NCBI RefSeq assembly: GCF_988243305.1
Contig: NZ_OZ547136.1
Direction: 5' to 3' (one strand)
DNA: 64,000 nt
Shown: piece after piece, positions 1 through 63,635 of the stretch
Layout: every line of letters begins with the position of its first letter
Position numbering within the stretch: the stretch's first letter is position 1
The notes under the pieces: model-generated
Seen by the model: the letters and a program-made list of their open reading frames with translations, nothing else
Database searches by the model: none
What the model was told of the DNA's origin: nothing
Made by a program: the position numbers and the translations under genes

Positions 1-2603
<2,603 letters not shown>

Positions 2604-2629
<26 letters not shown>

Positions 2630-3338: not shown

Positions 3339-3537
3339 CGTAACCTGTCGGATCGCCGGAAAGGACCCGCAAAATGATAATAATTATCATCTACATGTCA
3401 CAACGTGCATCTACGCCATCAAACCACGTCAAATAATCAATTATGACGCAGGTATCGTATTAATTGATCTGCATCAACTTAACGTAAAAACAACTTCAGA
3501 CAATACAAATCAGTGACACTGAATACAGGGCAACCTC

Positions 3538-3732: not shown

Positions 3733-4094
3733 ACATCCCGGTTTCTTCCACCATCGCACCGGAAAAGCAACTATGAGGGTAACCCTGCGTCTGTCAGCAC
3801 AGTAAAACCCGGTGTGCATCGTTTTTGATTATTCCCGCACACTCACGCAGAAGGAATTCCCCGTCGGGCTACGGTCATGGTTAATGCGGGAATACGGCGA
3901 CGATACAGCGCAGCTAAAAGGGTAATGGACAGAAAGAGCGGTTTATTTCATTCCACAGGATTCTGAGTGTCCCCAACTTCCTCCAATAGTCTGAGCGTAC
4001 ACCTATATAGTTTTAATTTTCATCAATCCATTTAACTATCGTTTAATTGTTGTCACATAGGATTCCGCCGTTTTTAACAATGCAGGATAATAAG

Positions 4095-4388
4095 ATGAAA
4101 AAAATGTTGTTTTCTGCCGCTCTGGCAATGCTTATTACAGGATGTGCTCAACAGACGTTTACTGTTGGAAACAAACCGACAGCAGTAACACCAAAGGAAA
4201 CCATCACCCATCACTTCTTCGTTTCGGGAATTGGACAGGAGAAAACTGTTGATGCAGCCAAAATTTGTGGCGGCGCAGAAAATGTTGTTAAAACAGAAAC
4301 CCAGCAAACATTCGTAAATGGATTGCTCGGTTTTATTACTTTAGGCATTTATACTCCGCTGGAAGCGCGTGTGTATTGCTCACAATAA
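4095..4388 (+). CDS. bor: Bor lipoprotein (serum-resistance lipoprotein of lambdoid phages)
   Basis: 97-aa product from internal ATG with SD aggataataag: MKKMLFSAALAMLITGCAQQTFTV..., lipobox LITGC; matches lambda Bor. Confidence 0.9.
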   Translation: MKKMLFSAALAMLITGCAQQTFTVGNKPTAVTPKETITHHFFVSGIGQEKTVDAAKICGGAENVVKTETQQTFVNGLLGFITLGIYTPLEARVYCSQ

Positions 4389-4419
4389 TTGCATGAGTTG
4401 CCCATCGATATGGGCAGCT

Positions 4420-4881
4420 CTATCTGCACTGCTCATTAATATACTTCTGGGTTCCTTCCAGTTGTTTTTGCATAGTGATCAGCCTCTCTCTGAGGGTGAA
4501 ATAATCCCGTTCAGCGGTGTCTGCCAGTCGGGGGGAGGCTGCATTATCCACGCCGGAGGCGGTGGTGGCTTCACGCACTGACTGACAGACTGCTTTGATG
4601 TGCAACCGACGACGACCAGCGGCAACATCATCACGCAGAGCATCATTTTCAGCTTTCGCATTAGCTAACTCCTTCGTGTATTTTTCATCCAGTGCAGCAA
4701 CATCACGCTGGCGCATCTGCATGTCAGTAATTGCCGCGTTCGCCAGCTTCAGTTCTCTGGCATTTTTGTCGCGCTGGGCTTTGTAGGTAATGGCGTTATC
4801 ACGGTAATGATTAACAGCCCATGACAGGCAGACGATGATGCAGATAACCAGAGCGGAGATAATCGCGGTTACTCTGTTCAT
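4420..4881 (-). CDS. Rz: i-spanin Rz
   Basis: [50 protein letters not shown]... matches lambda Rz; start overlaps endolysin stop (ATGA). Confidence 0.9.
4479..4661 (-). CDS. Rz1: o-spanin Rz1 lipoprotein, embedded in +1 frame of Rz
   Basis: 60-aa [63 protein letters not shown], proline-rich lipoprotein nested in Rz as in lambda. Confidence 0.85.
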
Positions 4882-5375
4882 TGCTGACCCCACAAACAGA
4901 TTTCACGCTCAATCTCACGACGAGTCATGAGACCTTTCCATTGCTTACCGCCAGCATATGTCCAGCGACGTAGCTGATCACATGCGCCTTTGATATCGCC
5001 CTGGTTTATTTTGCGAAGAAGCGTCGATGTTCTGAAATTGCCAGCGCCCACGTTGTAAACGAACGAGTAAAGAGCGCCGCGCGTTGTTTCCGGTATATCA
5101 ACTTTGATGTACGGGTTAATTTGTCTGGCGACCGTGGCAAGGTCTTTATTCAGGAGGGCTTTGCATTCTGCTTTGGTATACGTTTTACCGAGCATGATGT
5201 CTTTTCCTGTATGCCCGTGACATACAGTCCATACACCAACAATATCTTTGTATGGTATGTAGCTGACACCTTCCAGACCATCGTTACCACTTGGGCCAGT
5301 AATTAACACTGATGCTATAGCAATTGCTCCGCCACCAATAGCAGCAGCAACGGCTTTTCGTAATGATGGAGGCAT
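4878..5375 (-). CDS. Endolysin (T4-lysozyme-like with N-terminal signal-anchor-release segment, phage 21 / DLP12 RrrD type)
   Basis: 165-aa [62 protein letters not shown]...; hydrophobic Gly/Ala-rich N-terminus then lysozyme-like domain. Confidence 0.85.
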
Positions 5376-5590
5376 TATTCACCTCTCGCAGCCTTGCGCT
5401 TATCTTCTTTAATCTTGAAATAAAGGTTTGTCAGGTACGTCAGCAGGCCAAATACCAGGCTACCCAGCACACCTATTGCTGCCCACTGTGAGGGCGTGAC
5501 TTTATCGAGCAGCTGTAAAAACCAGTAGCCAGCACTGCCTGCGGAGGTGCCGTAGGCAATGCCTGTTGAAATTTTGTCCATGGATTTCAT
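5375..5590 (-). CDS. Class II holin (pinholin, S21 type) with dual-start motif
   Basis: 71-aa product [71 protein letters not shown]; two TM segments, Met1/Met4 dual start; track ORF extends upstream from a non-ATG start. Confidence 0.85.
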
Positions 5591-5692
5591 AGCCTCACCT
5601 CCGCACGGAACGGATGGCATAGTTATTATGTGTAGGCTTTCAGACACATCAATCAGAGCCTTAATTGATATATATGCTGGAGACGATGCAAT

Positions 5693-5716
5693 ATAAAAAG
5701 CTCGCCATAGCGAGCT
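5693..5716 (-). terminator. Rho-independent terminator candidate between the TolA-like cargo genes and the holin gene
   Basis: Inverted repeat agctcgc/gcgagct with 4-nt loop, followed on minus strand by a T-run. Confidence 0.45.
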
Positions 5717-5841
5717 AATAAAATGTATTTCTCTGATATTATGTTTATTTGTATTAGCTCAGACTTGACATCACAGGTTTCGTATATAGAACATCATCAA
5801 ATCTGTCAGTTTGCTATGAATGAGATATAGTAATTGAAGAG

Positions 5842-6237
5842 CTAACCTCGCATGTCAAAGCCAGATTTCTGAAAATCTCTGTAGACTTCCGGATTGTTGA
5901 AGGCCGGAAATTTGGCTTTATGAGCTGCGGACTTTATCGCTTCGCAATAGGCTTTATCACCGTTACTGGTAGATATTTTTAACGCCGTGCCATCCTGAGA
6001 GAATTCCATATGCAACCTGCATTTTTTCCCTTTCCAGTTATGCGGCTCATCAAGTTTGGCATTAATTGCAGCTCTGATTCCCCGCGCTTGCGCCCCCCAT
6101 TCATCCTGATCATCCCAGCGTCCTGAACTGCAACTACCTGTAGCAGTAGTTTTGTGGCAATCTGAAGGGTGTAAAGGTGTGCATCCCGCAACAAAACCGA
6201 CCCAAAAAGTCAACATAACGATTTTCTTTAATCCCAC
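5842..6237 (-). CDS. Lipoprotein with TolA C-terminal (domain III)-like fold, diverged copy
   Basis: 131-aa ORF with lipobox FVAGC; C-terminal ...KGKKCRLHMEFSQDGTALKISTSNGDKAYCEAIKSAAHKAKFPAFNNPEVYRDFQKSGFDMRG aligns with the TolA C-terminal domain; non-ATG start with strong SD (gaggag). Confidence 0.65.
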   Translation of the reverse strand: MGLKKIVMLTFWVGFVAGCTPLHPSDCHKTTATGSCSSGRWDDQDEWGAQARGIRAAINAKLDEPHNWKGKKCRLHMEFSQDGTALKISTSNGDKAYCEAIKSAAHKAKFPAFNNPEVYRDFQKSGFDMRG

Positions 6238-6387
6238 TTCTTGCTCCTCAATCCATTAAAATCTCAGCAATAGTAGTTGTTACGTCCGCCACTGGCTCAG
6301 AGCTGACTATCCGCTAAATTTAGCTCAGTGCCGTAGCTGTGTCAGAACAAACCTAAGCCGAAACCGTTTATTACAAAACAATAAATA

Positions 6388-6816
6388 TCAGGGTTTAAAA
6401 TCCAGCACCCCATTTTGAAATACTTTATATACTTCCGGCGAAGGGGGGGCAGGTATATCAGCATTCTTTATCGCATTCATCGCTTCACGACATAAATCGA
6501 GGTCTCCACTTTCTCTTTTAACCTCCAGTAGAAGGCCATTCGGGGCCATATGCATTCTCAGTGTACACTCTTTTCCTGAATACTTACTCGCATCCCCGAA
6601 CTGTTTTTCGATGGCGCTCTTGATTTGATGGGCATACAGACGGATATTCTCACTAACATCAGAAGTACGTTCAGATGAACTCACATACTGTGTCTCTATT
6701 GCTTTATCGGAGTAATATGATGTACGGTCATGATAATTTGTCGATACAGCATCAGTGCACCCGATAATAATCCCACTAATAATCAACGTAAGAATTGATG
6801 CGCTACGAAAACCCAT
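6388..6816 (-). CDS. Lipoprotein with TolA C-terminal (domain III)-like domain
   Basis: 142-aa ORF with lipobox IIGC; C-terminal YAHQIKSAIEKQFGDASKYSGKECTLRMHMAPNGLLLEVKRESGDLDLCREAMNAIKNADIPAPPSPEVYKVFQNGVLDFKP closely parallels E. coli TolA C-terminus (recalled ...YAGQIKSAIESKFYDASSYAGKTCTLRIKLAPDGMLLDIKPEGGDPALCQAALAAAKLAKIPKPPSQAVYEVFKNAPLDFKP); SD gtgaggaaaa. Confidence 0.75.
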   Translation of the reverse strand: MGFRSASILTLIISGIIIGCTDAVSTNYHDRTSYYSDKAIETQYVSSSERTSDVSENIRLYAHQIKSAIEKQFGDASKYSGKECTLRMHMAPNGLLLEVKRESGDLDLCREAMNAIKNADIPAPPSPEVYKVFQNGVLDFKP

Positions 6817-6845
6817 TTTTCCTCACATATGTCATATAGTAAAGG

Positions 6846-6875
6846 ATTATATATACCGTTGTTTTGGACGCTCAA
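6846..6875 (-). promoter_or_regulatory. Candidate sigma70 promoter for the TolA-like cargo genes
   Basis: Minus strand TTGAGC, ~17-18 bp spacer, TATAAT-like hexamer ~30 bp upstream of the 6816 start codon. Confidence 0.3.
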
Positions 6876-7349
6876 ACAGCGAATCAGATCAAATAAAACG
6901 CACATTTGTTAACATTTACACAAAGTCTGCGTGGGATATTCTGAAAGAATATCCATAATGTGGAGAGAATCTATTGAAGTGCATGGTGCCGGGTGCCTCC
7001 CGGTGAATTCAGTACCAGCACCTGAATCCGCGATTATCCCATATACCTACTCGCTGATTGCCCCTCCGCACAGGGGGATTCACCATGCCAGTTTCTTTTA
7101 ACAAACTCCCCGCAAACCAGAGAACAGTCAACCGCCTGAATTGTGAAGTATTTAAAAATTTCTCCCGCTAACTGATACCCGGCTAACAGTCTGGCGTTTT
7201 CTTTTTCAGCAACGGGAAAGCAACAACCACCACACCCGCCACCAGCACACCGTCAGCCAGCACTGACATTATCCGGCTGCTGCAATGCCATTCACAAAAA
7301 CAGTAAGCAATCACTTTTTACCGTAACAGGTGATAATCCAGATATGTAT

Positions 7350-7703
7350 CTACCCCAGATGAGTAATCCGAAGTTCATCCATACCACAGGTCCTGGCTAT
7401 TCTGTTGTACTCCTGAACAAGAGCAAATAATTCTGAATTAGCAACCATGAACTCATCGCAAACCCTCTGTATAGCATCACTATTCAGAAGAATAACGTCT
7501 CTTCCCGAAAGACGATCAGGAGTACAGAACAAAACTGTCAAACGGCTGAAGGCCTTTGCTCGTGCTGCATTGACTATATCAATACGCTGCCTAAGGATGA
7601 AACACCCCGACGCCTCATCAATATTCACTCTACCCACACCATATGAATGATAAATATTTAATGCTGAAAAAACCATTAGACCGTATAACAAACACTCAAT
7701 CAA
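7350..7703 (-). CDS. Hypothetical protein in late-operon cargo locus; start uncertain (track start is non-ATG; ATG at ~7676)
   Basis: 117-aa ORF, no recognisable family, no clear SD. Confidence 0.3.
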   Translation of the reverse strand: MIECLLYGLMVFSALNIYHSYGVGRVNIDEASGCFILRQRIDIVNAARAKAFSRLTVLFCTPDRLSGRDVILLNSDAIQRVCDEFMVANSELFALVQEYNRIARTCGMDELRITHLG

Positions 7704-7813
7704 TACTTAACAGAACTTTTATTTTTGACAAACATATAATATTTTCAACAATATCCTGAGCCAGGTATATTCCAGTATAAGGCTCTGCCGGAAGGAATCT
7801 GGAAGAATGAATA

Positions 7814-7890
7814 TGGCGCGCTGTACTGGATTCGAACCAGTAACCGATTGCTTAGAAGGCAATTGCTCTGTCCGGCTGAGCTAACAACGC
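7814..7890 (-). tRNA. tRNA-Arg (anticodon UCU)
   Basis: Reverse complement gcgttgttagctcagccggacagagcaattgccttctaagcaatcggttactggttcgaatccagtacagcgcgcca folds as cloverleaf: 7-bp acceptor stem, anticodon loop cttctaa, T-loop ttcgaat, CCA end. Confidence 0.9.
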
Positions 7891-7994
7891 TGAATACCGA
7901 TAATGGACCGCTATCGGGGACCCGCCCCCCCCCGCACCAACAACCCTGTTATCGTGTCGTCTGCTCTTCCTGATAAGCTCATGGCGGTTTGTGA

Positions 7995-8070
7995 TGGTGG
8001 CCCTTGCTGGATTTGAACCAGCGACCTGGCGATTATGAGTCGCTCGCTCTCACCACTGAGCTAAAGGGCC
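7995..8070 (-). tRNA. tRNA with CAU anticodon (Ile2/lysidine type or Met), resembling phage ileZ
   Basis: Reverse complement ggccctttagctcagtggtgagagcgagcgactcataatcgccaggtcgctggttcaaatccagcaagggccacca; perfect 7-bp acceptor stem, anticodon loop ctcataa, CCA end. Confidence 0.9.
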
Positions 8071-8105
8071 GGGAGCAGAATAATAACGGTCCGTAATTAA
8101 TTCCG

Positions 8106-8133
8106 CAATAAAAAACCCGCTCGGCGGCGGGTT
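8106..8133 (-). terminator. tR'-like rho-independent terminator downstream of the late promoter
   Basis: Hairpin aacccgc/gcgggtt with 6-nt loop, followed on minus strand by TTTTTATT. Confidence 0.6.
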
Positions 8134-8180
8134 GTAGAAACTCTTCTAACGTCAGGCATAAAAAGCCCATCGTTATGATG

Positions 8181-8208
8181 AATTTACCACAGATTTCGGA
8201 AAAATCAA
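8181..8208 (-). promoter_or_regulatory. pR'-like late promoter candidate between Q and the terminator
   Basis: Minus strand TTGATT, 16 bp, TG-n-TAAATT (extended -10) in the 80-bp gap between Q stop and terminator hairpin; predicts a short ~60-nt leader RNA like lambda 6S. Confidence 0.4.
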
Positions 8209-8213
8209 CCTTG

Positions 8214-9035
8214 TTACCTAGTTACCTTTTTTAACTGCCGCTCAGCCCATCCTTCTTCAATATCAAACCGGGTCACCAGCGCATCATAGAATTTCTTAAC
8301 TGTTTTTTCCCATGACGCGCGTGTTATCTGGTTTGTCACCTCGCATATAGCATTAAATGCCTCCGTTGATGGTAGTCTTTCATAGCCACGACCACCACAA
8401 CGCTGGCAGTCTCTGATAACAGGCATACCACGTTTTACCGACTCTTCACGGTGAATGGCGACACCACGCCCACGGCAATCCTTACAGGCGGTGGAAACCT
8501 CACCCTTTCCGCCACACTCCGGACAGGCAACTTTTACCACCTCCCTGACTTTTTTCCATTCTTCCCAGTAAGACGGATACACACCTTTCGTACACTTTGC
8601 CCATACCGGCGGCTTACCATCCGGATACTGGACCTTGTTTGTAAAAACTACGCTTTCAATAAATTTTTCCCCATAGCAACAAGGGCACTGCTTTTTACTC
8701 GCTGCGCTGCGGGCATAATCCTCAAAAGCGTACGAAGCCATAATGCGCATCACTACCGGTTTTATTTCTGCCGGAAGTTTTCTCAACGCCGCCACACGAT
8801 CGCACCGACTGAGTGCATAATCTGCCAGTAATTCTGTTGCCCGCGCCCTGTCATTCATACTGATGCCCATTTTCCCCAGGAACGCAGAAAACCCCATCTC
8901 AGCCCGATTCTGTGTCATGCCCTGCGCGGCCATCACATCAGTGATACTCAGCGCATCTTTTGACGTTGAGGCCGATGCATCGGTCAGGCAAGGGGATTTT
9001 GGGGAGTAGTATTTCGGTAAATCTTCCAGTTTCAT
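8214..9035 (-). CDS. Late-gene antiterminator Q (Cys-rich, Qin QuuQ / phage 82 type)
   Basis: 273-aa ORF MKLEDLPKYYSPKSPCLTDAS...CPCCYGE...CPECGGKGEVSTACKDCRGRG...; position immediately upstream of pR'/tR' and lysis genes. Confidence 0.7.
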   Translation of the reverse strand: MKLEDLPKYYSPKSPCLTDASASTSKDALSITDVMAAQGMTQNRAEMGFSAFLGKMGISMNDRARATELLADYALSRCDRVAALRKLPAEIKPVVMRIMASYAFEDYARSAASKKQCPCCYGEKFIESVVFTNKVQYPDGKPPVWAKCTKGVYPSYWEEWKKVREVVKVACPECGGKGEVSTACKDCRGRGVAIHREESVKRGMPVIRDCQRCGGRGYERLPSTEAFNAICEVTNQITRASWEKTVKKFYDALVTRFDIEEGWAERQLKKVTR

Positions 9036-9409
9036 TTTTTGACCTGCTCTTCATGCATTATGGGGTAAATCTTCACCCCCAGACGTCCACCAGATACTGG
9101 CTGACCACGAACGATATTGATTTCATCAAACTGCTCATCGTCCATTAACACTCCCGCATGCGTCAGCGCATCCAGCGGTGCTTTCAGGATATTGTCCAGG
9201 TCGCGACGACGCTTATCCGGTGGCTCTGCAATCACCTTTATCGCCAGCCTTCCGGACAGGCTTAATTTCAGCCGCTGCTGGCGAACAATAAGCGCCACAG
9301 CCCGGCGATAACGCTTTCCCTCCTCCGAGATAAAATATGTGCTGCCACGGCGTCGCCAGTAAGTGTTCACCGTCGGCGGGTAAGGTAAAACCAAATCTAT
9401 GAGCATCAC
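9032..9409 (-). CDS. rusA: Holliday junction resolvase RusA
   Basis: 125-aa ORF ...LPYPPTVNTYWRRRG...DKRRRDLDNILKAPLDALTHAGVLMDDEQ... matches RusA motifs. Confidence 0.8.
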   Translation of the reverse strand: MMLIDLVLPYPPTVNTYWRRRGSTYFISEEGKRYRRAVALIVRQQRLKLSLSGRLAIKVIAEPPDKRRRDLDNILKAPLDALTHAGVLMDDEQFDEINIVRGQPVSGGRLGVKIYPIMHEEQVKK

Positions 9410-9418
9410 TCACCTCTT

Positions 9419-10468
9419 TTACCCAAGCACGCCAGTTGCAAAGGCGTGATCAAGAAAACGAAAAATTAAATCAACCTGAGAACCATGCTTTTCTTCGAAC
9501 GCCAGAGGATCCGCATGAAGCTCGTTGTGATGCTCCCGACACAGCGGTAGCGTGAAAATATCGTGAGATTTTGTCCCCATTCCGCCCTGACCATGACCAA
9601 TCAGGTGATGGGGATCGTCGGCTGGCTTACCACAATACGCACACGGCTGTGTCTTCACCCAGCGTGTGTATTTCTCGTTAACCCAGCGGCGACGTTTAGG
9701 TCGTTTCATGAAAGATTCCGGAGACTCAGGATCAACGGCAATGCTGACCACCGTCTTTTCCTGTGGTGGGTTCTGTTGCTGGTGGGCGTGAGGCAGCGGC
9801 GCAAGATTTTTTGTGCGCTGTTTCAGTATGCTGGTGGCGGTCTGCTCTCCCGGTACGATGTCGCTTTCACGGTACATTGAGCGGATTTTTTCCGCACGCA
9901 ACCCCAGCGAACGACGTAATACCGCTTCCGGTAGCGCGTCCGCCACCTGATTGCGGACCGCCCACCAGGATAATTCAGCCAGCGATAATTCCCGCTCCTG
10001 TGTGCCATTCATTGCGTGACGAATGACGTCAATCATCCATGCTGACAAGTTTTGGTGAGCAAGTTGCTCAAGTGATTCGGAGGTCTGGTCACGCAACTGG
10101 TTGTCGCAGTGCCAGCACAACACCATTGCGCCGGTACCATAACGGTGAATGACGGTTTCGCTGTGATGATAATCGCCGTGTGGCCACTGGCAGGATTTAA
10201 TATGGCGCAACAGCCAGTCAGACAATGCACCAGCACCACCAGCAGCACGAATCACCCGTGCGTTACTGAAAAACGGCAGCAATGTTTTGTCTTCCACCAG
10301 CGGCTGGCGAACGGCAGGAACGCCCCCGGACGGCAGATTACGCATGCTTTTCGGTTCCGGCTCCACCAGTACCCGGGTATTGTGGAATACCGGCATGGAT
10401 TCACGGCCCGGCTTAACGATCACCAGCCCGAGTTCCGGTACCAGAACAGGTCGAAGTAATACTCGCAC
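9419..10468 (-). CDS. DUF968 (YdfU-like) protein with C-terminal HNH-like Cys/His motif
   Basis: 349-aa ORF; C-terminal CAYCGKPADDPHHLIGHGQGGMGTKSHDIFTLPLCREHHNELH. Confidence 0.6.
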   Translation of the reverse strand: MRVLLRPVLVPELGLVIVKPGRESMPVFHNTRVLVEPEPKSMRNLPSGGVPAVRQPLVEDKTLLPFFSNARVIRAAGGAGALSDWLLRHIKSCQWPHGDYHHSETVIHRYGTGAMVLCWHCDNQLRDQTSESLEQLAHQNLSAWMIDVIRHAMNGTQERELSLAELSWWAVRNQVADALPEAVLRRSLGLRAEKIRSMYRESDIVPGEQTATSILKQRTKNLAPLPHAHQQQNPPQEKTVVSIAVDPESPESFMKRPKRRRWVNEKYTRWVKTQPCAYCGKPADDPHHLIGHGQGGMGTKSHDIFTLPLCREHHNELHADPLAFEEKHGSQVDLIFRFLDHAFATGVLG

Positions 10469-10469
10469 G

Positions 10470-10748
10470 TTACCTCCAGATGCGTTGCTGGAATGTGCGG
10501 GACGGACGCGGTGATCGTTCGGAGTAAGGAAGCCTGACGGAGATTATCCAGTGACGATAATCGAGGCTGAGGGCTTTCTTAATCTCGTATCCGTGTCTGC
10601 GGTAGCACTGAATTAGCCACTCGGCCTGTTCTTCAGTGCATGGGGGATGCTGGAACCAGTCAGATTTGAAAGTGCGGGAACGCCGCCCGTGCCTGCTGGC
10701 AAAGACGGCAGAATCATCAGAATTGTGTAATTTGGTATCGTGCGCCAT
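10470..10748 (-). CDS. Small nin-region protein (Rem-like); start assumed at internal Met
   Basis: MAHDTKLHNSDDSAVFASRHGRRSRTFKSDWFQHPPCTEEQAEWLIQCYRRHGYEIKKALSLDYRHWII...; family from memory. Confidence 0.4.
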   Translation of the reverse strand: MAHDTKLHNSDDSAVFASRHGRRSRTFKSDWFQHPPCTEEQAEWLIQCYRRHGYEIKKALSLDYRHWIISVRLPYSERSPRPSRTFQQRIWR

Positions 10749-10915
10749 CGGTTGTCTCTGCTGGCGCAGCAGGTGCCAGTTGTTCAGGCTGGCGTGCGAA
10801 TTGTAAACCAGAATGCCAGGAAAAAACAAAACCCGCCGAAGCGGGTTACGTGCGGGTGCGTTGAGGATGCCTGACACATCAGAGGTGGCGAGGGATTTCT
10901 CCCTCGCCGGGTCTC

Positions 10916-11071
10916 TTACTCCTCAGGTTCGTAAACTGTGAAGACAGCGACCTCCGTCTGGCCGGTTCGGATTCGTACCTCGCAGAGGTCTTTCCTCGTT
11001 ACCAGTGCCGTCACTATGACGGTTAAACAGATGACGATCAGGGCGATTAACATCGCCTTTTGCTGCTTCAT
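10916..11071 (-). CDS. hok: Hok/Gef family type I toxin (HokD/RelF-like)
   Basis: 51-aa product MKQQKAMLIALIVICLTVIVTALVTRKDLCEVRIRTGQTEVAVFTVYEPEE; single TM helix and conserved Cys; track ORF carries an in-frame 19-codon upstream extension. Confidence 0.9.
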   Translation of the reverse strand: MKQQKAMLIALIVICLTVIVTALVTRKDLCEVRIRTGQTEVAVFTVYEPEE

Positions 11072-11791
11072 AGCCTGCTTCTCCTTGCCTTTCGGCACGT
11101 AAGAGGCTAACCTAGATTTGCCGTTCATAGATTGAGCCTCAGATTAATGTTAAGCGTCTTGCAGGACGCGTAATGTTAACTGGGGCTTTTCTCTATCTGC
11201 CTTTGGTGTTCATGCCTGAGGCAGATAGCCTCAAGCACCCGCAGCAATTCTACTTAACTCCCGTCACCTCGCCAATATAAAATCAATCAGAAAGGCGATC
11301 CATAAGAACAACAGCAAGACAATAAATTGCCATTACAGCCGCAATAGCTAGCGCACATTTGAGAACCAGCACGACAACCTCCTGTATTGGACGTACACCA
11401 GTTCTGATAAATATGAGGCTGTCTCATCATTGATTCAATATAACTATTGGGTATAGTTTCTGTGATTTTGTTCTGTAGAAATGGAACACAACAACCAGTC
11501 ACCACCAGCACTTCTTTAAATACGCCAAGTCCGACGCAAGCTAACCTTCTAGTCCGCTTTGAGCGAGGAGCGGACCAAACCCGGCCAACTGACTCTTAAA
11601 GGGGCCGCAGGAATTTTTCGTCTGAACTTTCGAAGCTCCTCTCCCTGAAGACAGAAAACTTCTGTGTGCTGTGGGAATATTGAATCTTTGCATTAGATAT
11701 AAATAATTTTATCCCGCCTGAAGTTTACATTATTTTATTTATCTGTTTTTCTAAATCAGACTGCACTCCTTACTTAAATCAGGAGCCAGTC

Positions 11792-12991
11792 ATGCCATTT
11801 GTTATTTATGTGTTTACTATCAGTGCCTTTGCGCTCGGACTCGCGGAATTTGTCCCCATTGGGCTGACAGACGTTATGGCTCAGGGGTTGTGTGTGGGTG
11901 TGGAGCAGACCGGGGCAGCGGTTACAACCTATGCACTGGGGGCAACGTTCGCGGCACCCGTACTGTCTGCGCTGACAGCAAGCTGGAGCCGGAAAAATGT
12001 AATGCTTACAACTGCCGTTGTGTTTACTGCCGGTAGTCTGGCGGCCGCGTTTGCAGCCACATTACCTCAGCTCCTGTTAGCGCGGTTCATTGCTGGTCTG
12101 GGACACGGCCTGTTTCTGGCTGCGGCATCCAGTACCGCAGCTCGTCTTGCTGGACCGGGTAAAGCAGGCAGAGCGGTGGCTGTGGTATTTGGTGGCTTTA
12201 CTCTGGCGATGGCAATCGGCGTACCGCTGAGTACATGGTTGGGGGGGGTGGTCTCATGGCGTCCAGTTCTCGGCGCTATTGCCGCTTTTGGCGCGTTCGG
12301 ATTCCTTGGACTGTTGTTCGGTATGAAAGATCCCGTACGCAGCGTGCCCGGTGAACATAGTGACTCAGCAATGCAGAATATCGGCATGCTGTTTAACCGT
12401 AAGTTGCTGGCCGGCGCGCTGGTTACGGTGCTGGCGTATGCAGGCTCGTTTACGGCTTACACCTTTATCGCACCTATTCTGACGCAGGTGACAGGGGTTA
12501 CCGGAGCAAAGGTGAGTCTGTTTATGCTGGTTTACGGTATTACAGCTGCGGTAGGTAATATTCTTGGTGGGAAACTTACCGACAGCATGGGGGTTAATCG
12601 TGCCAATATACTCATCATTAGCGGCATTGTTGTTGTCGTGCTTGGTATGTGGCTGCTGTCATCCTCACCGGTGAGCATGGGCATTCTGGTTGCGCTGCTG
12701 GGTATGGTGACATTTGCCGCAGTGCCGGCACTGCAGGCCCGTCTGATTGGTGTCGCTGAGCAACATGCTCCTCATGCGCATGGTGTTGCTGCCGGCCTGA
12801 ATATTGCGGGCTTCAACTCAGGTATAGCGCTGGGATCAGTACTGGGCAGCATTACTATAAGCCACGCCGGTATCGTGTATACCGGTATCAGCGGTGCGAT
12901 TGTTTCTCTGCTCGGCCTGCTGTTGCTGCTTGCACAAATCCGTCGCAGCCACAGTCGTAAATTTCAACAGGTTAAAATCGTAGGCCAGTAA
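11792..12991 (+). CDS. MFS transporter (12-TM)
   Basis: 399-aa highly hydrophobic ORF MPFVIYVFTISAFALGLAEFVPIGLTDVMAQ... with MFS-like repeat organisation. Confidence 0.7.
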   Translation: MPFVIYVFTISAFALGLAEFVPIGLTDVMAQGLCVGVEQTGAAVTTYALGATFAAPVLSALTASWSRKNVMLTTAVVFTAGSLAAAFAATLPQLLLARFIAGLGHGLFLAAASSTAARLAGPGKAGRAVAVVFGGFTLAMAIGVPLSTWLGGVVSWRPVLGAIAAFGAFGFLGLLFGMKDPVRSVPGEHSDSAMQNIGMLFNRKLLAGALVTVLAYAGSFTAYTFIAPILTQVTGVTGAKVSLFMLVYGITAAVGNILGGKLTDSMGVNRANILIISGIVVVVLGMWLLSSSPVSMGILVALLGMVTFAAVPALQARLIGVAEQHAPHAHGVAAGLNIAGFNSGIALGSVLGSITISHAGIVYTGISGAIVSLLGLLLLLAQIRRSHSRKFQQVKIVGQ

Positions 12992-55868: not shown

Positions 55869-56120
55869 AAAAAAAAGTCCTGGGGTTAAGTAAGGAACTC
55901 CAGGACGCGGCAAACACTCAACCGTTTTTCATAAGGAAATCAGCAATCGCACCGATCGTTTTCCCGCCTGGTAATGAATATTGGCGAGCACATTAACAGG
56001 CGGGAAAGTGGCCCCAGCGTCCTGGCACCACGGGCGAGAATAATCATGATTCAGTTCGGGTAAAATATGCCGATCCGCTCAGTGAACAACGTGGAACAAC
56101 CACGAACAAATAATTTACAA

Positions 56121-56150
56121 AAAATAACAAAAAGCCGGATTGCTCCGGCT
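56121..56150 (-). terminator. Rho-independent terminator
   Basis: Hairpin agccgga-ttgc-tccggct followed on minus strand by TTTTGTTATTTT. Confidence 0.6.
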
Positions 56151-56169
56151 GTATGTGCTGTATGGGTGC

Positions 56170-56394
56170 TCAGTCTCTGATCCCTTTCAGAAATTCTATC
56201 AATGCATCTGTCTGTTCAGGATTTACTGCCAGCATTTCACCGGATAGCGCGCAACGAACAAAACCATGATGATCCTTTTCAATCAGTGCGCCCGTCTCCA
56301 GGAATGCGCGGTAATCATTGATGCTCATCGTCTCCATGTTGTCAGCATGGTATTTATCACGCTGTTTTAATATCTCATCAAATTTCATCGGCAT
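56170..56394 (-). CDS. Small hypothetical protein (start at internal ATG)
   Basis: MPMKFDEILKQRDKYHADNMETMSINDYRAFLETGALIEKDHHGFVRCALSGEMLAVNPEQTDALIEFLKGIRD. Confidence 0.45.
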   Translation of the reverse strand: MPMKFDEILKQRDKYHADNMETMSINDYRAFLETGALIEKDHHGFVRCALSGEMLAVNPEQTDALIEFLKGIRD

Positions 56395-56489
56395 TGTTTT
56401 TTCCTCTGTTGTGTCTGTTTGTTTCAGATAGTAACTATGCCTGACCGTGACGAAAACCCGGTAATGCGCCATACCGTTTCAACTGGTGC

Positions 56490-56513
56490 AAAAAAAGCCG
56501 GATTTCTCCGGCT
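56490..56513 (-). terminator. Rho-independent terminator
   Basis: Hairpin agccgga-tttc-tccggct preceded on plus strand by AAAAAA (T-run on minus). Confidence 0.6.
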
Positions 56514-56563
56514 GTGTGATTAGCTGTCCTGGTAATTGCGCCATATTTCATCACCAGCACCAT

Positions 56564-56791
56564 CTATCCCCATTTCGGCATAAGTGCGATCGACTGCCTT
56601 TTCAGGTCTCCGTAATTATCCGGTGGCTCCGGTGGCCTCTGTGCCTTCCTGGAACATTCCAGCCGTCGCATCGTGATGTGATGCCGTTCCTTGTCTGTCT
56701 CCACCAGCAGCATGACTTCACCCCATCGCGCCGACGCCCTCCGGTAAAATCCTTTAGCCTCGAGTTCCTCCGCTATGCGGTCATGTACCAT
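56564..56791 (-). CDS. PerC-family-like transcriptional regulator (start uncertain)
   Basis: ...AEELEAKGFYRRASARWGEVMLLVETDKERHHITMRRLECSRKAQ... resembles PerC; track ORF overlaps the SSB gene so a downstream start is assumed. Confidence 0.4.
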   Translation of the reverse strand: MVHDRIAEELEAKGFYRRASARWGEVMLLVETDKERHHITMRRLECSRKAQRPPEPPDNYGDLKRQSIALMPKWG

Positions 56792-56801
56792 CCTCACCCC
56801 C

Positions 56802-57212
56802 TCAGAACGGAATACCGTCACCGTAAGGGTCATCGCCTCCCGCTGGTGGCTGATTACCCTGTGTGCCTGTGGTTTTGCGTCTGTTCCCGCCAGGACGTGC
56901 CGCACGGGCACTGATTACGCTGTCTGCAATAACCTGCCAGCCCTGCCGCGTTTCTCCGTTCTGTCCGGTCCACTGGCTTACCTGCATCGTGCCGGATACG
57001 CTGGCAACATCGCCTTTTTGATGTTTAGCCAGGAAGTCGGCCTGTTTGCCAAATGCGATGACCGATAACCATAACGTCGCCTGTCCGTCCTGTGCCTGGC
57101 TGCATGGCAAAGATACCGCCATACGCGCCAGCGTCATCGGTGTGCCCTTGCTGGTCTGTTTTACCTGCGGGTCGTCCACCAGCCGCCCGTAAGCGGCTAT
57201 CTGTGCCGTCAT
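56802..57212 (-). CDS. Single-stranded DNA-binding protein (phage type)
   Basis: 136-aa ORF with OB-fold-like N-terminus, Gly/Gln/Pro-rich linker and acidic C-terminal tail DDPYGDGIPF. Confidence 0.7.
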   Translation of the reverse strand: MTAQIAAYGRLVDDPQVKQTSKGTPMTLARMAVSLPCSQAQDGQATLWLSVIAFGKQADFLAKHQKGDVASVSGTMQVSQWTGQNGETRQGWQVIADSVISARAARPGGNRRKTTGTQGNQPPAGGDDPYGDGIPF

Positions 57213-57409
57213 AATTCCACCTCTCCGGTTTTAACGTTGATGGTTGTTACCTGTTCCGCTTCGGCAATCTCCCGTTCTGTCAGCGTGGCAAAGTTTGCCG
57301 CCGCCGTGGTCATGAATGCGCTTATCAGGTCGGGATGTTCCTTCGCGTATCCTTCCCGCGTGTGGCGGTCTATCGTTCTGATTGCCACCTTTAAAGCGTG
57401 CTCAGTCAT
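57209..57409 (-). CDS. Small hypothetical protein (start at internal ATG to avoid the iteron region)
   Basis: MTEHALKVAIRTIDRHTREGYAKEHPDLISAFMTTAAANFATLTEREIAEAEQ... Confidence 0.35.
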   Translation of the reverse strand: MTEHALKVAIRTIDRHTREGYAKEHPDLISAFMTTAAANFATLTEREIAEAEQVTTINVKTGEVEL

Positions 57410-57469
57410 GTCTAACGCTTTATATTTTGGCTCTGTTCTGTCTCTGCGTTTTTGGGTCATTTCTCGCAA

Positions 57470-57665
57470 CCTCTCACTTTTTCGCCTCACTTTTTCAAGC
57501 GTCTCACTTCGTCGCAGTTGGGATTTTCGGTTTTTCTATGTGTGTGTTTCATAAGTATTTTTTTACCCCTCACTTTTGAGGATGTATACAGGTCGAAAAG
57601 TGAGGGAGAGCGGGCTAATTTTGGCCCTCTTTCTATCCCCCTCGCTTTTGCTCCTCACTTTTATA
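57470..57665. repeat. Island replication origin candidate: six or more CTCACTTTT iterons (one inverted) with an AT-rich stretch, directly downstream of the helicase gene
   Basis: cctctcactttttcgcctcactttttcaagcgtctcacttc...cccctcacttttgagg...cgaaaagtgaggg...ctcgcttttgctcctcactttta. Confidence 0.7.
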
Positions 57666-59061
57666 GCGGCGCTACATCATCCCCATCGATACGAATAACC
57701 CCATCTTTTTCCAGCTTGTACAGCCAGCGCCGGAAGTTTTTCATTTCATACCCCAGTTTTTTCATGTCATCACGTAACAGCGGGATCGTGCACTTGTCGC
57801 CGTTCTGTGTGCGTGAACGGATGCACCCCCATAGCGCGGTATGGTTTTCCGTCTTGTTCCCTGCCTCCTCGATGCGCTCCAGTTCAACAGGAGGGCGCGG
57901 ATCATCCACCACTACCAGCGACGTGATTAATTCACCGTCAGCGTCGGTAAAAAGCTCCACCACGCGTAAGTCATATGCGGCTTCTTTGAGTTCCTCCGCG
58001 TCCTTCATTTTGGTGCATGAGATAACCAGCGCTTCGCTTCCTGCGTCCTCCCTGCGTATCCGGTATTCAGCATCCAGCGAAGCACGAAATGCACTGGAAC
58101 CGCGCGCGCCTTTCGTCTCATCCTTGCCGGAATGGTGAACCACCAGCACCGTGGCCCCTGTGCGTCGTTTCAGTTCGTCACAACCACGGATAAACGCCCC
58201 CATATCACGGGAATCATTTTCATCATTCCCACCAAAGCAACGCGCCAGCGTATCCAGAATAATCATGCGTACAGGTTTACCCGTTTCCCGCTCCACCTGA
58301 CGGGCAGCGATAACCATTTCATCAACATCAAGCGGGGCAGCCGGAAAGATGGGGCGGTTTACCAGATACAGATTTTTCACCTGCTCATCGTGCACAACCT
58401 CCCAGGCTTTTACACGACGCGGAACACCTATACCGCCTTCACCAACCACATAGAGAACCGCACCATGTGCAACCCTGCGGCCTCCCCACTGGCGACCAGT
58501 GGCAACATGGCACGCCCACGATCCGGCAAGGAATGATTTATAGGACCCGCTAGCCCCGTATATGCTGCATAGCGATACCGCCGGAATAATCCCCTTAACC
58601 ACGTAATCCAGTTGCGTGTCGTATCCGGTAGATCCAACGCTCATCGGTAGCGTGGTTTTTCGCTGGTGGTTTTTTTCTTCCACCGGCTCTTTCCCGCGCA
58701 CCCGTTCCAGGTATTCGCGCCAGTTCTCCCGCATATGGCTGTGCATCCCTTCGGGGTAATAATTCGCATCAGTTACACCCGCCGCCGCCAGCTTGTGCGC
58801 AATGGCATTAATATTTGATGGCCTGATGTGGCCTGCCTTGTACAGCCGGACACAATAGCGCCCCTCGTCGATGATTCTCAGGTCTGCCAGTTCATCCAGT
58901 TGATCATCAGCCAGCACAACGGGAGGCACATTATCGCCAGCCAGTCGCCCGTCCTGTTCCTGCCACTGTTTCGCATGTGCCCAGGCATCACTACCCGCAA
59001 AAATAATGACTTCGGTCATCTTGTCGTAAGGCTGTTTTTTTAAGTTCGGTGCGCTTTTCAT
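57661..59061 (-). CDS. Replication initiator / helicase-like RecA-fold ATPase (RepA/DnaB-like)
   Basis: 466-aa ORF with Walker A GASGSYKS and RecA-like C-terminal domain; followed by iterons. Confidence 0.65.
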   Translation of the reverse strand: MKSAPNLKKQPYDKMTEVIIFAGSDAWAHAKQWQEQDGRLAGDNVPPVVLADDQLDELADLRIIDEGRYCVRLYKAGHIRPSNINAIAHKLAAAGVTDANYYPEGMHSHMRENWREYLERVRGKEPVEEKNHQRKTTLPMSVGSTGYDTQLDYVVKGIIPAVSLCSIYGASGSYKSFLAGSWACHVATGRQWGGRRVAHGAVLYVVGEGGIGVPRRVKAWEVVHDEQVKNLYLVNRPIFPAAPLDVDEMVIAARQVERETGKPVRMIILDTLARCFGGNDENDSRDMGAFIRGCDELKRRTGATVLVVHHSGKDETKGARGSSAFRASLDAEYRIRREDAGSEALVISCTKMKDAEELKEAAYDLRVVELFTDADGELITSLVVVDDPRPPVELERIEEAGNKTENHTALWGCIRSRTQNGDKCTIPLLRDDMKKLGYEMKNFRRWLYKLEKDGVIRIDGDDVAPL

Positions 59062-59357
59062 TTCTTGCCCCTGAATCCGTTAATCATGGTTTTCAGCTTC
59101 TGGATGTTTGCCCGTGCCCTGGCGTTGCTGGTGGGCACGTTATGCGGCGCGGTCTGTACCAGAGAAAAATCACGCCGGAACTGATAAACAGGCATCACGC
59201 AATCATATTCGTAACCTTCACGGCGGTAGGTTACGCGCCGTTCTTCCACGCCCTTAATCATTACCGTGCCGCCGTACTGGTCGCGGTAAATATCACCGCG
59301 CGTAAATTTAGGGTGAGTGTTGCCACTGGCAGTTAAGCCAGAATATTTAAGTTTCAT
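59058..59357 (-). CDS. Hypothetical protein
   Basis: 99-aa ORF translationally coupled to helicase gene. Confidence 0.4.
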   Translation of the reverse strand: MKLKYSGLTASGNTHPKFTRGDIYRDQYGGTVMIKGVEERRVTYRREGYEYDCVMPVYQFRRDFSLVQTAPHNVPTSNARARANIQKLKTMINGFRGKK

Positions 59358-59362
59358 TATTT

Positions 59363-59596
59363 TTATTCTCCGGTGTGCTGTTCTTTATATCTGTCGTGCA
59401 ATAGATCTATTTCTTGCAGTTCCATTATTACAGGCTCAAGAAGCGTTATTAATGCCGTGGCAATTCTTGATTTTTGTTTGTCGCGTTCATTGTCGCCAAG
59501 TGTTTCAAGCCATATGCGCAATATTTCCAGCATGTTTTCACTGTGAGAAAGTGCAAGAAATACGCGGTCTATTGTTTCGTGGTAAATATCACGCAT
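59363..59596 (-). CDS. Hypothetical protein
   Basis: 77-aa ORF in same-strand small-gene array. Confidence 0.4.
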   Translation of the reverse strand: MRDIYHETIDRVFLALSHSENMLEILRIWLETLGDNERDKQKSRIATALITLLEPVIMELQEIDLLHDRYKEQHTGE

Positions 59597-59597
59597 A

Positions 59598-59819
59598 TTA
59601 ATCCCCGTCCGTCGTTTTTCTTAAAATAACCTCTGTCACGAAATCAGCATAATCGGCGGCGATATTCAGTACATCAAGCCCCGTTGATTTATATTCTCTC
59701 GTGGAAAGTAAGAAAAAAGCCGCTCTAATAAGTTCTGGCATTGACGAAAGCGCATCAGCCGCATCATCAGGAACGCCGGAAAATTCCTGTTTCAGGGAAT
59801 TAAAACGATCATCACGCAT
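59598..59819 (-). CDS. Hypothetical protein
   Basis: 73-aa ORF in same-strand small-gene array. Confidence 0.4.
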   Translation of the reverse strand: MRDDRFNSLKQEFSGVPDDAADALSSMPELIRAAFFLLSTREYKSTGLDVLNIAADYADFVTEVILRKTTDGD

Positions 59820-60034
59820 AACCCCCCCCCATTTTCACAATCAGCAACAAGAATATTTTTAGCGTCATTCAGCGACCGCGTTGCGATGTATCGGATACAT
59901 TCCAGGGCGAACTGTGTCCGGTCTTTCTGTTCTTCTCCCTGCGCAAGCTCTGCAGTGCATTCAATATCGATAAGCGCGTGCATCAGCGTAGTGAGCGCGG
60001 CGGCTGCTGCGTCCGGTGTGGTTTTATTGCACAT
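59792..60034 (-). CDS. Hypothetical protein (start at internal Met)
   Basis: MCNKTTPDAAAAALTTLMHALIDIECTAELAQGEEQKDRTQFALECIRYIATRSLNDAKNILVADCENGGG... Confidence 0.35.
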   Translation of the reverse strand: MCNKTTPDAAAAALTTLMHALIDIECTAELAQGEEQKDRTQFALECIRYIATRSLNDAKNILVADCENGGGLCVMIVLIP

Positions 60035-60314
60035 GGCACACCTCCTGACGAATACGGGCGGCGAATACAGCAACACAACCGGACGGGCAACGGCTACGCG
60101 CTTCGCGTTCCGTCCAGGCGGTTACGTGGATGATTTGAGATTCTCCGGCACTTAGTGCCAGAAAACGCCACACAAAGGCCGTTTGTGTGTGTATAAGGCG
60201 TGGTATATGATTTACGGCAACCATAACGGCTCCTAGTTTACGTTGTTGGTTAGACGCCCCGTATGTGTTCCCAGCACTGCGGGGCGTTGATTTTTGTGTA
60301 ATGGCAAGTACAAT

Positions 60315-60358
60315 GGTAATTACCATGTAGGTATAGTAATGAAGGGTAATTACCATGT
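60315..60358. promoter_or_regulatory. Two copies of operator-like palindrome GGTAATTACCATGT, the second overlapping the RHH gene start codon
   Basis: caatGGTAATTACCATGTaggtatagtaatgaaggGGTAATTACCATGtca. Confidence 0.6.
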
Positions 60359-60528
60359 CAACACCATTAGAAAAACGTTCGCCTCCATACCAAATGCGAT
60401 TACCGGAAGACTTCAGAGCGCAGCTAGAAGAAGCAGCTAAGGCCGATGGCGACACATCTTTAGCCACTTGGATTAAACGCGTTCTCCGCAAAGAATTACA
60501 GCAACGCGGCATAGAGCCAAAAGGTTGA
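60355..60528 (+). CDS. Ribbon-helix-helix (Arc/CopG-like) DNA-binding protein
   Basis: 57-aa product MSTPLEKRSPPYQMRLPEDFRAQLEEAAKADGDTSLATWIKRVLRKELQQRGIEPKG; RHH-like beta-strand (MRLPEDF) then helices; too short for ORF track. Confidence 0.55.
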   Translation: MSTPLEKRSPPYQMRLPEDFRAQLEEAAKADGDTSLATWIKRVLRKELQQRGIEPKG

Positions 60529-61828: not shown

Positions 61829-62017
61829 TTAATGAACTGCCTTGCAGCTATCCTTCCAGGCCAGAACCTCGGATAAAGACCAGCCAACGGAACGACCGCC
61901 AAGTTTACGACGTGATGGGAATTGTCCGGCCTTTTCCAGGCGGTAGCGACACGTACGGCTAAGGCCGGTTAGTTTTTCGCATTCTTTTTCACGTATAAAC
62001 CGATCAGTGCTTAACAC
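61829..62017 (-). CDS. alpA: AlpA-family transcriptional regulator / excisionase
   Basis: 62-aa ORF ...EKLTGLSRTCRYRLEKAGQFPSRRKLGGRSVGWSLSEVLAW... (AlpA HTH pattern). Confidence 0.7.
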   Translation of the reverse strand: MLSTDRFIREKECEKLTGLSRTCRYRLEKAGQFPSRRKLGGRSVGWSLSEVLAWKDSCKAVH

Positions 62018-62381: not shown

Positions 62382-63599
62382 TTATTTTCTTCTGGCTACT
62401 GGTAGCGTGGTTACGTTTTCATGTGTTCCCGCCAGTATCCCTAACCGCTCCGTCCACATATCCAGCGCATTGCGTTTAGCATCCAGATAACGGGAATGAT
62501 TATAAACTCGCTGCATTCCTGGCATCTGGTGGCCTGTAAGCTGCTCCACGACATGCGGATCAACGCCTAAATCGTTCAGCATGGTTGTAAAGGTGCGCCG
62601 GATGTCATGCAGTGACCAGTGAGGATGATTAAGCCTCCTGTGCGCTAATCTTCCATACTGCGATACGCTGGCCTCCTGTTTCACTTCCCCCAGCAATAAG
62701 CCCGTGTGCCTGTTCTGCTCCACCAGCTGCGTGACGAACGGCAGGATCGCTTCCGGTATGGGCCGGAATATTGCGACCTTCGTTTTGCTGTGCTCCTTCG
62801 GAACGGTCCATAGCATTTCCGTAAAATCCCACTCCCCGATCTCCGATAACCTCAGTTCTACCGTTCTGGCTCCGAAGACAATCAGGAGGCGGATTAACGC
62901 GACGTAGTAAGGGGAGAATATTTTTTTGTCCAGTGCCTGCAATAATTCGCCAAGTTCTTTGTTACTTAAGACACGTTCGCTTATATCCGGTTTTTTCCCA
63001 ACGTCCGCCACGTTCAGATCGTCCAGAACGTTGCTGATTGCATAGCGCCGCCTACGGCAGAACTTAAGCGCCTGTTTGCACGCCTGTAGCACGAATCCGG
63101 CAGTAACAGGCGTTCGCTTTGCCACCTGGTCAAAACAGGCCAGCCAGTGCCGTAGCTCGCATTTATCCAGCGGCATAGCACCAATCTGCTGTATTACGTG
63201 ATTATTAAGTCGCCTTTTCAGGGCGATATAATCCACGCGGTTTTCCTTTACGTAATACTCAAGCCAGTAGGTGAGCGCATCGCCAACCGTTACGGGCTTT
63301 AACGCTTCCTGTACGGTGTAATTCATCTCATGACGTGGATTTTTCCCCTCAGCCAGCCATGTGCGACACTGTGCGGCTTTTTCCCTGGCTGCTTTCAGGC
63401 TCAGATCAGGATAACTTCCCAGCTTAATGCGTTCGGGTCGTGTCTCCCTTCCCGTTCCGGCCCTGTATGTGAAATACCAGGTCAATTTCCCTGATGTTAA
63501 ATATTTCACGCTCAGGTTTCCGCCATCACTATAAAACGTGTTTTTCTCCGCTGGCTTACCATGAAGTTTCCTTAGCAAGGTATCGCTCAGTTTGTTCAT
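62382..63599 (-). CDS. int: Tyrosine integrase (P4-like, PICI-type)
   Basis: MNKLSDTLLRKLHGKPAEKNTFYSDGGNLSVKYLTSGKLTWYFTYRAG...; C-terminal ...HDIRRTFTTMLNDLGVDPHVVEQLTGHQMPGMQRVYNHSRY; track ORF starts 4 codons earlier at GTG. Confidence 0.9.
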   Translation of the reverse strand: MNKLSDTLLRKLHGKPAEKNTFYSDGGNLSVKYLTSGKLTWYFTYRAGTGRETRPERIKLGSYPDLSLKAAREKAAQCRTWLAEGKNPRHEMNYTVQEALKPVTVGDALTYWLEYYVKENRVDYIALKRRLNNHVIQQIGAMPLDKCELRHWLACFDQVAKRTPVTAGFVLQACKQALKFCRRRRYAISNVLDDLNVADVGKKPDISERVLSNKELGELLQALDKKIFSPYYVALIRLLIVFGARTVELRLSEIGEWDFTEMLWTVPKEHSKTKVAIFRPIPEAILPFVTQLVEQNRHTGLLLGEVKQEASVSQYGRLAHRRLNHPHWSLHDIRRTFTTMLNDLGVDPHVVEQLTGHQMPGMQRVYNHSRYLDAKRNALDMWTERLGILAGTHENVTTLPVARRK

Positions 63600-63635
63600 T
63601 GCTCTGCTCACGTTTTACCCCCTCTTTACGAAAAA

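Follow-up and report, generated by a model that had tools for sequence, protein, structure and literature searches.

A putative iteron-type replication origin adjoining repA in a capsid-forming PICI-like satellite of Escherichia coli

Gene content of the island and its replication module

The DNA that we analyzed, a stretch of 64,000 nucleotides from contig NZ_OZ547136.1 (RefSeq assembly GCF_988243305.1) referred to here as the window, contains an E. coli capsid-forming PICI-like phage satellite that is inserted in tqsA. One flank of this island is the E. coli ynfM-asr-ydgD-mdtJI region, and the tqsA gene of strain 14EC001 is interrupted by a near-identical island. Between 49.5 and 63.6 kb all genes are on the minus strand, in the order tyrosine integrase, a 62-aa ORF, small ORFs, DUF4222, repA, an intergenic gap, orf83, a single-stranded-DNA-binding protein (SSB) gene and a PerC-like regulator. 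After the PerC-like gene there are genes for an HK97-type capsid, prohead protease, portal, head-tail connector, head closure, HNH, TerS and TerL. The island matches the gene layout of a capsid-forming PICI (10.1101/2022.09.08.507074), as it has an integrase gene, the 62-aa ORF in the position of an AlpA-type regulator, a unidirectional operon, packaging genes and a size in the PICI range of about 10-15 kb. The genes and coding segments that are relevant to this study are the following:

62382-63611, minus strand: int, tyrosine integrase (gene annotation)
61829-62017, minus strand: 62-aa ORF, located where 14EC001 has an annotated HTH regulator beside int
59058-59357, minus strand: DUF4222 gene, the end of which overlaps the start of repA by 4 nt
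57661-59061, minus strand: repA, putative initiator-helicase of 466 aa with a ~125-aa N-terminal domain, an AAA_25 core and a C-terminal winged helix
57664-57864, minus strand: coding region of the predicted RepA C-terminal winged helix (residues 400-466)
57736-57738, minus strand: codon AAC for Asn442, third residue of the predicted recognition helix
57209-57460, minus strand: orf83, an 83-aa ORF (phrog_1231), first gene past the gap and PGAP-annotated in identical loci
56802-57212, minus strand: ssb, island single-stranded-DNA-binding protein (phrog_44, E=3.6e-40)

The SSB protein scores 57.2 bits against TIGR00621, which is above the cut-off of 53.95. The DUF4222 gene probably also belongs to the replication module, because of its 4-nt overlap with the start of repA.

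When compared with complete E. coli genomes, the query region finds matches in 1,707 of 5,426, with 593 holding most of the module, and the maximum coverage of the island by any one of these genomes is 89%. EcCIEDL933 has a cf-PICI packaging module like that of the window island but its rep is reported to be of the EcCICFT073 type, which rules out that the two islands are the same. In E. coli O157:H7 and related strains (loci L001 and L167), an island at phoQ-roxA carries the DUF4222-repA-ori-orf83-ssb-perC block at 99.7-99.8% identity together with a packaging set that differs, with genes for a major capsid, a decoration protein and a small terminase unlike that of the window island. The occurrence of this replication block with two packaging modules at two sites, tqsA and phoQ/roxA, shows shuffling between classical and capsid-forming PICIs. 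The window also contains, at 1-12000, a partial lambdoid prophage with a large terminase, a portal, a DNA-packaging protein and an antitermination protein, within which there are genes for tRNA-Arg (tct, 7814-7890) and tRNA-Met (7995-8070). It is conceivable that this prophage, which is located ~37 kb from the island, acts as a helper phage.

The repeat array between repA and orf83

The initial annotation described a ~190-bp non-coding region directly 3' of an ATPase gene, with at least six copies of a short repeat (one of them inverted) and an AT-rich stretch. The non-coding region corresponds to a 200-bp intergenic gap (57461-57660) that extends from the repA stop codon (57661-57663) to the ATG of the next gene (57458-57460). 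A motif search of the gap located exact copies of CTCACTTTT on the plus strand at 57473, 57486, 57569 and 57654 and an inverted exact copy at 57596-57604. Two further copies are CTCGCTTTT at 57641, which has one mismatch, and CTCACTTCG at 57502, which has an intact core. The gap therefore contains five exact repeats, six when one mismatch is allowed and seven when counted by the GTGAG/CTCAC core, which bears out the earlier count inclusive of the single inverted copy. The seven GTGAG-core copies (one being GCGAG) occur within 190 bp, a number in the range of 6-12 that is typical of SaPI/PICI-type origins, in which short iterons share a core of five or six nucleotides. A weak eighth core, GCGAG, is present beyond iteron 7 at about 57463-57467. 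Only two other exact copies of CTCACTTTT are found in the 64-kb window (1977 and 27323) and there are none elsewhere in the island; by our own arithmetic, five of seven exact copies would fall in a given 200-bp stretch with a probability of ~6e-12. On the gene strand the repeat unit reads (A)AAAGTGAG(G) and is ~9-10 bp long. The features of the gap, listed from the repA side, are as follows:

57654-57662, minus strand: iteron 1, gene strand AAAAGTGAG, overlapping the repA stop codon
57641-57649, minus strand: iteron 2, gene strand AAAAGCGAG with one mismatch, where relatives read AAAAGTGAG or AAAAGTGGG
57596-57604, plus strand: iteron 3, the sole inverted copy, paired with iteron 4 in an 11-nt inverted repeat (57567-57577 / 57596-57606)
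57583-57590, no strand: palindromic TGTATACA, midway in the inverted pair of iterons 3 and 4 and kept across genera
57569-57577, minus strand: iteron 4, AAAAGTGAG, the last repeat ahead of the AT-rich region
57520-57565, no strand: AT-rich stretch, presumed DNA-unwinding element, GC 0.25 over 57526-57565
57502-57510, minus strand: iteron 5, gene strand CGAAGTGAG, with an intact core and a degenerate A-tract
57486-57494, minus strand: iteron 6, AAAAGTGAG
57473-57481, minus strand: iteron 7, AAAAGTGAG, overlapping the GAGAGG ribosome-binding site of the next gene

Since iteron 1 overlaps the repA stop codon, the array starts immediately 3' of the putative initiator gene. From there the order is four rep-proximal repeats (one inverted), the AT-rich stretch and three distal repeats. 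The AT-rich stretch of the initial annotation is readily recognized as the lowest 40-nt GC value in the gap (0.25 at 57526-57565), and it separates the rep-proximal from the distal repeats so that a central AT-rich region has iterons on both sides. The iterons had additionally been called phased, which is true only loosely. Specifically, the tandem pairs are about one helical turn apart, but the start-to-start distances of 13, 45, 27, 67, 16 and 13 bp exhibit no 10.5-bp periodicity. The palindromic TGTATACA site is conserved between genera as TGTATA[CT]A or ATATATA, including those with a different iteron sequence. Its possible roles include a centre of dimer symmetry, a nucleus for bending or melting, and a weak -10-like element. 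No DnaA boxes (TTWTNCACA, <=1 mismatch) and no IHF sites (WATCAANNNNTTR, <=1 mismatch) are present in 57461-57660, with window-wide counts of both being at chance, so initiation at this locus is probably independent of DnaA and IHF.

We compared this layout with that of relatives by analyzing 161 loci by script, which included 80 loci taken from one genome per species and 80 from IMG/VR. Within the ~200 nt past the stop codon, the best 8-mer has 6-14 occurrences in the majority of Enterobacterales loci and only 4-5 in about a dozen, mainly the more distant ones. In control windows from the same loci the best 8-mer averages ~4 occurrences with a maximum of 5-8. The repeats are also conserved in position, with offsets from the stop of ~0, 12, 55 (inverted), 85, 145-152, 168 and 181, and the inverted copy at ~+55 is kept in nearly all Enterobacterales relatives. 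The same is true for the AT trough, which among 124 unique relatives has a median offset from the repA stop of +95 (IQR 90-96) and a mean minimum GC of 0.24 versus 0.42 in coding controls.

The repeat sequence itself varies. For example, five E. coli loci with 77-91% nucleotide identity have each repeat at the same position, with a core that is GTGAG in three of the five (one GTGGG copy in L003) and exclusively GTGGG in the other two. By lineage, the core is GTGAG or GTGGG in E. coli, GTGAGGA in Xenorhabdus, GTGCGGC in Kosakonia, Enterobacter soli and Phytobacter, and TGGGGGAA in Serratia, Erwinia, Pectobacterium, Photorhabdus and Morganella. Distant RepA homologues (L079, L080, L082 and L084), which have 29-40% identity and unrelated C-termini and come from Alpha- and Betaproteobacteria, an unclassified proteobacterium and a Nitrospinia MAG, have 8-mers of their own that occur 8-12 times just 3' of the gene (GCCGGACA, ACGGGACA, TGTCGCTC and ACCCTGAC). 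These arrays indicate that the rep-then-iteron layout extends well beyond the Enterobacterales.

One relative is a 16,971-bp closed circular 'plasmid' of K. pneumoniae (CP018459.1, pKp_Goe_795-4, locus L168) that is cf-PICI-like and has the same gene layout. The GTGCGGCA iterons of its origin region are arranged as in the window, with an inverted pair around TGTATACA as well, and PLSDB, the gene table of which is incomplete, lists no plasmid replicon type for it. This element provides circumstantial support for an episomal life of the RepA-type module. Its genes include int, a RepA homologue, capsid, adaptor, TerS and TerL. A further gene of 3.4 kb is annotated as encoding a tail tape measure protein, an unusual finding in an element that supposedly borrows its tails.

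RepA and covariation of its residue 442 with the iteron core

The product of the gene upstream of the gap had been labeled a helicase-like ATPase, a designation that agrees with a Pfam AAA_25 match over residues 148-315 (E=5.5e-43) and with the RefSeq name 'helicase RepA family protein'. AAA_25 is the only Pfam domain found in RepA, which also matches phrog_2850 over its full length and DNA primase/helicase phrogs over its core. The nearest solved sequence relative is RSF1010 RepA (1g8y, E=0.0055), and a Foldseek search with an AlphaFold2 model gives the core a RecA fold with Rad51, KaiC and RadA matches. The Walker A motif GASGSYKS spans residues 169-176, and G169, K175, S176 and D270 are invariant among 33 homologues. 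The N-terminal domain has a modest pLDDT and, apart from a partial hit to a 'DNA primase' phrog, has no matches; no primase domain is recognized in the replication module. At the C-terminus a winged helix is confidently predicted, with helices at 405-419, 426-435 and 440-452 and a beta-hairpin wing at 456-465, for which the nearest folds are the winged helices of ORC/Cdc6. Four residues of the predicted recognition helix, namely K441, R445, W446 and K449, do not vary among relatives.

As a separate observation, RepA residues 1-130 together with the overlapping DUF4222 gene (58670-59357) are common to PICI Reps of quite different classes, annotated as DNA primase family, DUF927, DUF5906 or primase-like DNA-binding domain. 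Identity to these other-class Reps is 52-72% at the amino-acid level (residues 1-130) and ~76-92% at the nucleotide level (58915-59400). Judged from these alignments, the RepA N-terminus plus DUF4222 looks like a swappable module, with the N-terminus perhaps being a DUF4222-binding or regulatory domain.

The sequence differences among iterons follow a single residue of the predicted recognition helix. A comparison of residue 442 with the iteron core across 94 unique RepA C-termini gave the following classes:

Asn442 (K-N-[FM]-x-R-W), 35 unique C-termini: RTGAG, mean of 8.0 copies versus 0.37 for RTGGG
His442 (K-H-[FL]-x-R-W), 24 unique C-termini: RTGGG, mean of 9.6 copies versus 0.42 for RTGAG
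Lys442 (K-K-F-x-R-W), 30 unique C-termini: TGGGGG, in the RTGGG class as for His442
Ser442 (R-K-S-F-x-R-W), 5 unique C-termini: RTGCG, mean of 7.8 copies

The window falls in the first class, with Asn as RepA residue 442 and A as the variable base of the iteron core T-G-N-G, and the T-G-x-G frame of the iteron is invariant among relatives. The only exceptions to this relationship are L061 (Klebsiella sp. BIGb0407) and L063 (Tatumella sp.), both of which have His at the position equivalent to 442 in the helix IEVKHFHRWV and show no clear iteron array 3' of the gene.

When mutual information with the iteron class was scanned column by column over the whole of RepA in 53 unique E. coli-type proteins, residue 442 was the sole column with full information (1.0/1.0 bit). 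The second-best RepA column reached 0.37 bit, and the best columns of the downstream ORF and of DUF4222 reached 0.62 and 0.19 bit, respectively. The winged-helix coding region adjoins the iterons, so recombination could move both together, and part of the covariation could come from such linkage. As a cause of the covariation, however, linkage is unsupported by the per-column values for RepA and both flanking proteins, and it is argued against by the intervening residues, which are only weakly associated with iteron class even though several of these weaker columns are encoded closer to the iterons. On a helicase-core tree of 87 sequences the Asn/His state undergoes 19 parsimony changes, which indicates that winged helix and iterons have been exchanged or switched many times and always together. 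From this pattern we infer that Asn442 is the likely determinant of the A in the iteron core T-G-A-G. Pairing of Asn with adenine, and of His or Lys with guanine, fits general preferences in protein-DNA complexes. Thus the predicted fold and the residue-442 covariation both point to a C-terminal winged helix that recognizes the iterons.

The array as a candidate replication origin

The organization of the locus has clear counterparts. SaPI origins consist of 6-12 short iterons directly downstream of rep with a central AT-rich region flanked by iterons, which are bound by the C-terminal winged helix of a self-loading Rep helicase (PMC9371898). The window locus is like SaPI1, SaPIbov1 and SaPI5 in having the putative origin 3' of rep, a core of 5-6 nt and an AT region between iterons, with at least two iterons on each side in the window. 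It also resembles the SaPIs in that the initiator would itself be a helicase with a C-terminal winged helix, here a predicted one, for the iterons. However, there are several important differences. The SaPI ATPase is of the AAA+ SF3 or MCM-like kind whereas the window RepA is a RecA-fold AAA_25 protein, and the SaPI rule that iterons flanking the AT region are opposed in orientation (PMC9371898) does not hold in the window, where they are co-oriented and the lone inverted copy is rep-proximal. The window island furthermore differs from SaPIs in having a Gram-negative host and one direction of transcription. The same origin organization was reported for all of the PICIs identified by Fillol-Salom et al. 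2018 (PMC6092414, Fig. 2), and the only Gram-negative PICI origin for which replication has been shown is the pri-rep-ori fragment of EcCICFT073 (PMC6092414). EcCICFT073 has a primase-helicase Pri-Rep of the P4-alpha kind, unlike the RecA-fold RepA of the window. Neither the RepA-type module nor the AAAAGTGAG iteron is described in the searchable text, literature searches with iteron sequences returned only unrelated primer or oligonucleotide matches, and the PMC6092414 supplements make no mention of iterons or RepA.

Other replicons share individual elements with this locus. RSF1010 RepA of the IncQ group has a homologous helicase core (1g8y, AAA_25), and its oriV also combines iterons with an AT-rich segment. 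In RSF1010, however, a separate RepC binds 20-22-bp iterons and the RepB primase acts at ssi sites, in contrast to the window where the helicase has its own predicted winged helix. An IncQ replicon is ruled out, as a family search of the repA neighbors DUF4222, the 83-aa ORF and SSB found no RepB or RepC homologue. An origin of the Rep_3, pPS10, R6K or RK2 plasmid kind is likewise ruled out, given that RepA has only AAA_25, the iterons are ~9-10 bp and there is no DnaA box; plasmids of the Rep_3 kind have a WH1-WH2 Rep that lacks helicase activity, 17-22-bp iterons and DnaA boxes in the origin. The alpha protein of satellite P4, also an enterobacterial phage satellite, is like the window RepA a helicase with a C-terminal origin-binding domain, which is contained in one polypeptide and recognizes short repeated octamers. 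P4 alpha differs in that it is a primase plus SF3 helicase, and the P4 ori and crr are two separated clusters that do not adjoin the 3' end of the gene.

Taken together, we consider it very probable that 57461-57662 is the vegetative replication origin of the capsid-forming PICI-like satellite in E. coli tqsA, a reading based on comparative sequence analysis. It is argued for by repeats that start at the repA stop and are arranged in two sets around an AT-rich trough, by the PICI context of the island, and by a repeat sequence that covaries perfectly with one residue in the predicted recognition helix of the RepA winged helix. These features support the rep-then-iteron origin of SaPI/PICI type that was proposed in the initial annotation.

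The remaining serious alternative, which is less likely than an origin, is that the repeats are bound by RepA but serve mainly as an operator, copy-control or incompatibility array that provides autoregulation or gates transcription of the downstream genes orf83-ssb-perC, with replication starting elsewhere. The covariation shows only that RepA reads the repeats and not what this binding achieves, the gap is located between two co-transcribed genes with iteron 7 overlapping the ribosome-binding site of the second, and the conserved TGTATACA between the inverted repeats is faintly -10-like. Yet a promoter scan detected no sigma-70-like promoter on the gene strand in the gap, and the position-conserved AT trough has no operator role while being a hallmark of an unwinding element. 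Moreover, no other iteron/AT-rich candidate from which replication might start was seen in the island, the motif being absent elsewhere in it, and the equivalent region in SaPIs and in EcCICFT073 is the origin. We therefore regard a purely regulatory array as improbable.

A role in packaging, with the repeats being cos-adjacent or pac-type sites for the island's small terminase, is considerably less probable still. Terminase small subunits often recognize arrays of short repeats and the island has its own HNH, TerS and TerL, but in the O157:H7 island the repeats, as part of the near-identical rep-ori module, accompany an unrelated packaging module, which argues against any cos or pac function. 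The repeats also covary with RepA rather than with packaging genes and are ~6 kb away from terS, whereas cos sites of HNH-type systems usually adjoin the terminase genes. Finally, a low-complexity run that arose by chance, a transcription terminator and a small RNA gene are all extremely improbable explanations of the repeats. One weak terminator-like hairpin does exist at 57612-57627, but it is on the plus (non-coding) strand and a terminator scan found none on the gene strand of the gap. An Rfam search over 56000-60500 with E up to 1 returned nothing relevant, and the single-strand DNA fold of the gap is unremarkable (z=-1.5). A chance origin of the repeats is excluded by their clustering, conservation and concerted change.

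With the gap taken as an origin, initiation could proceed in the following manner. Induction by a helper phage would cause transcription of the island operon through DUF4222, repA, the origin, orf83 and ssb. RepA protomers would then bind the iterons via the winged helix, with the invariant K441, R445, W446 and K449 contacting the invariant T-G-x-G and N442 reading the variable base. Assembly of RepA on both sides would distort and melt the AT-rich segment, where the RecA-fold helicase (RSF1010 RepA/DnaB-like) may load itself. The island SSB would coat the single strands, and host enzymes would presumably prime and elongate.

The principle of rep followed by iterons and an AT-rich region is already published for PICIs, and the window locus would be a further origin of the PICI/SaPI kind. 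The class of initiator-helicase found in the window has not yet been studied in satellites. For annotation, the comparison indicates that in islands of this type the DNA between a 'helicase RepA family protein' gene and the gene that follows is functional. The analysis also maps the putative origin of this module, which is widespread in enterobacterial satellites, precisely enough to be tested, and the covariation of one residue with one base predicts that an N442H swap retargets the initiator from GTGAG to GTGGG. If so, the RepA module would offer a small experimental system in which to examine how a winged helix linked to a helicase recognizes an origin, and from which orthogonal replicons could be built. 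We give an even chance to the broader proposal that RepA-type PICIs constitute a third class of self-loading initiator-helicase, in which a RecA-fold SF4-like ATPase is joined to an ORC-like winged helix, one residue sets specificity (Asn for A, His or Lys for G, Ser for C), and frequent co-switching of this residue with all iterons generates orthogonal replicons. If this proposal is true, then residue/iteron co-switching could let satellites coexist in one cell or escape cross-interference.
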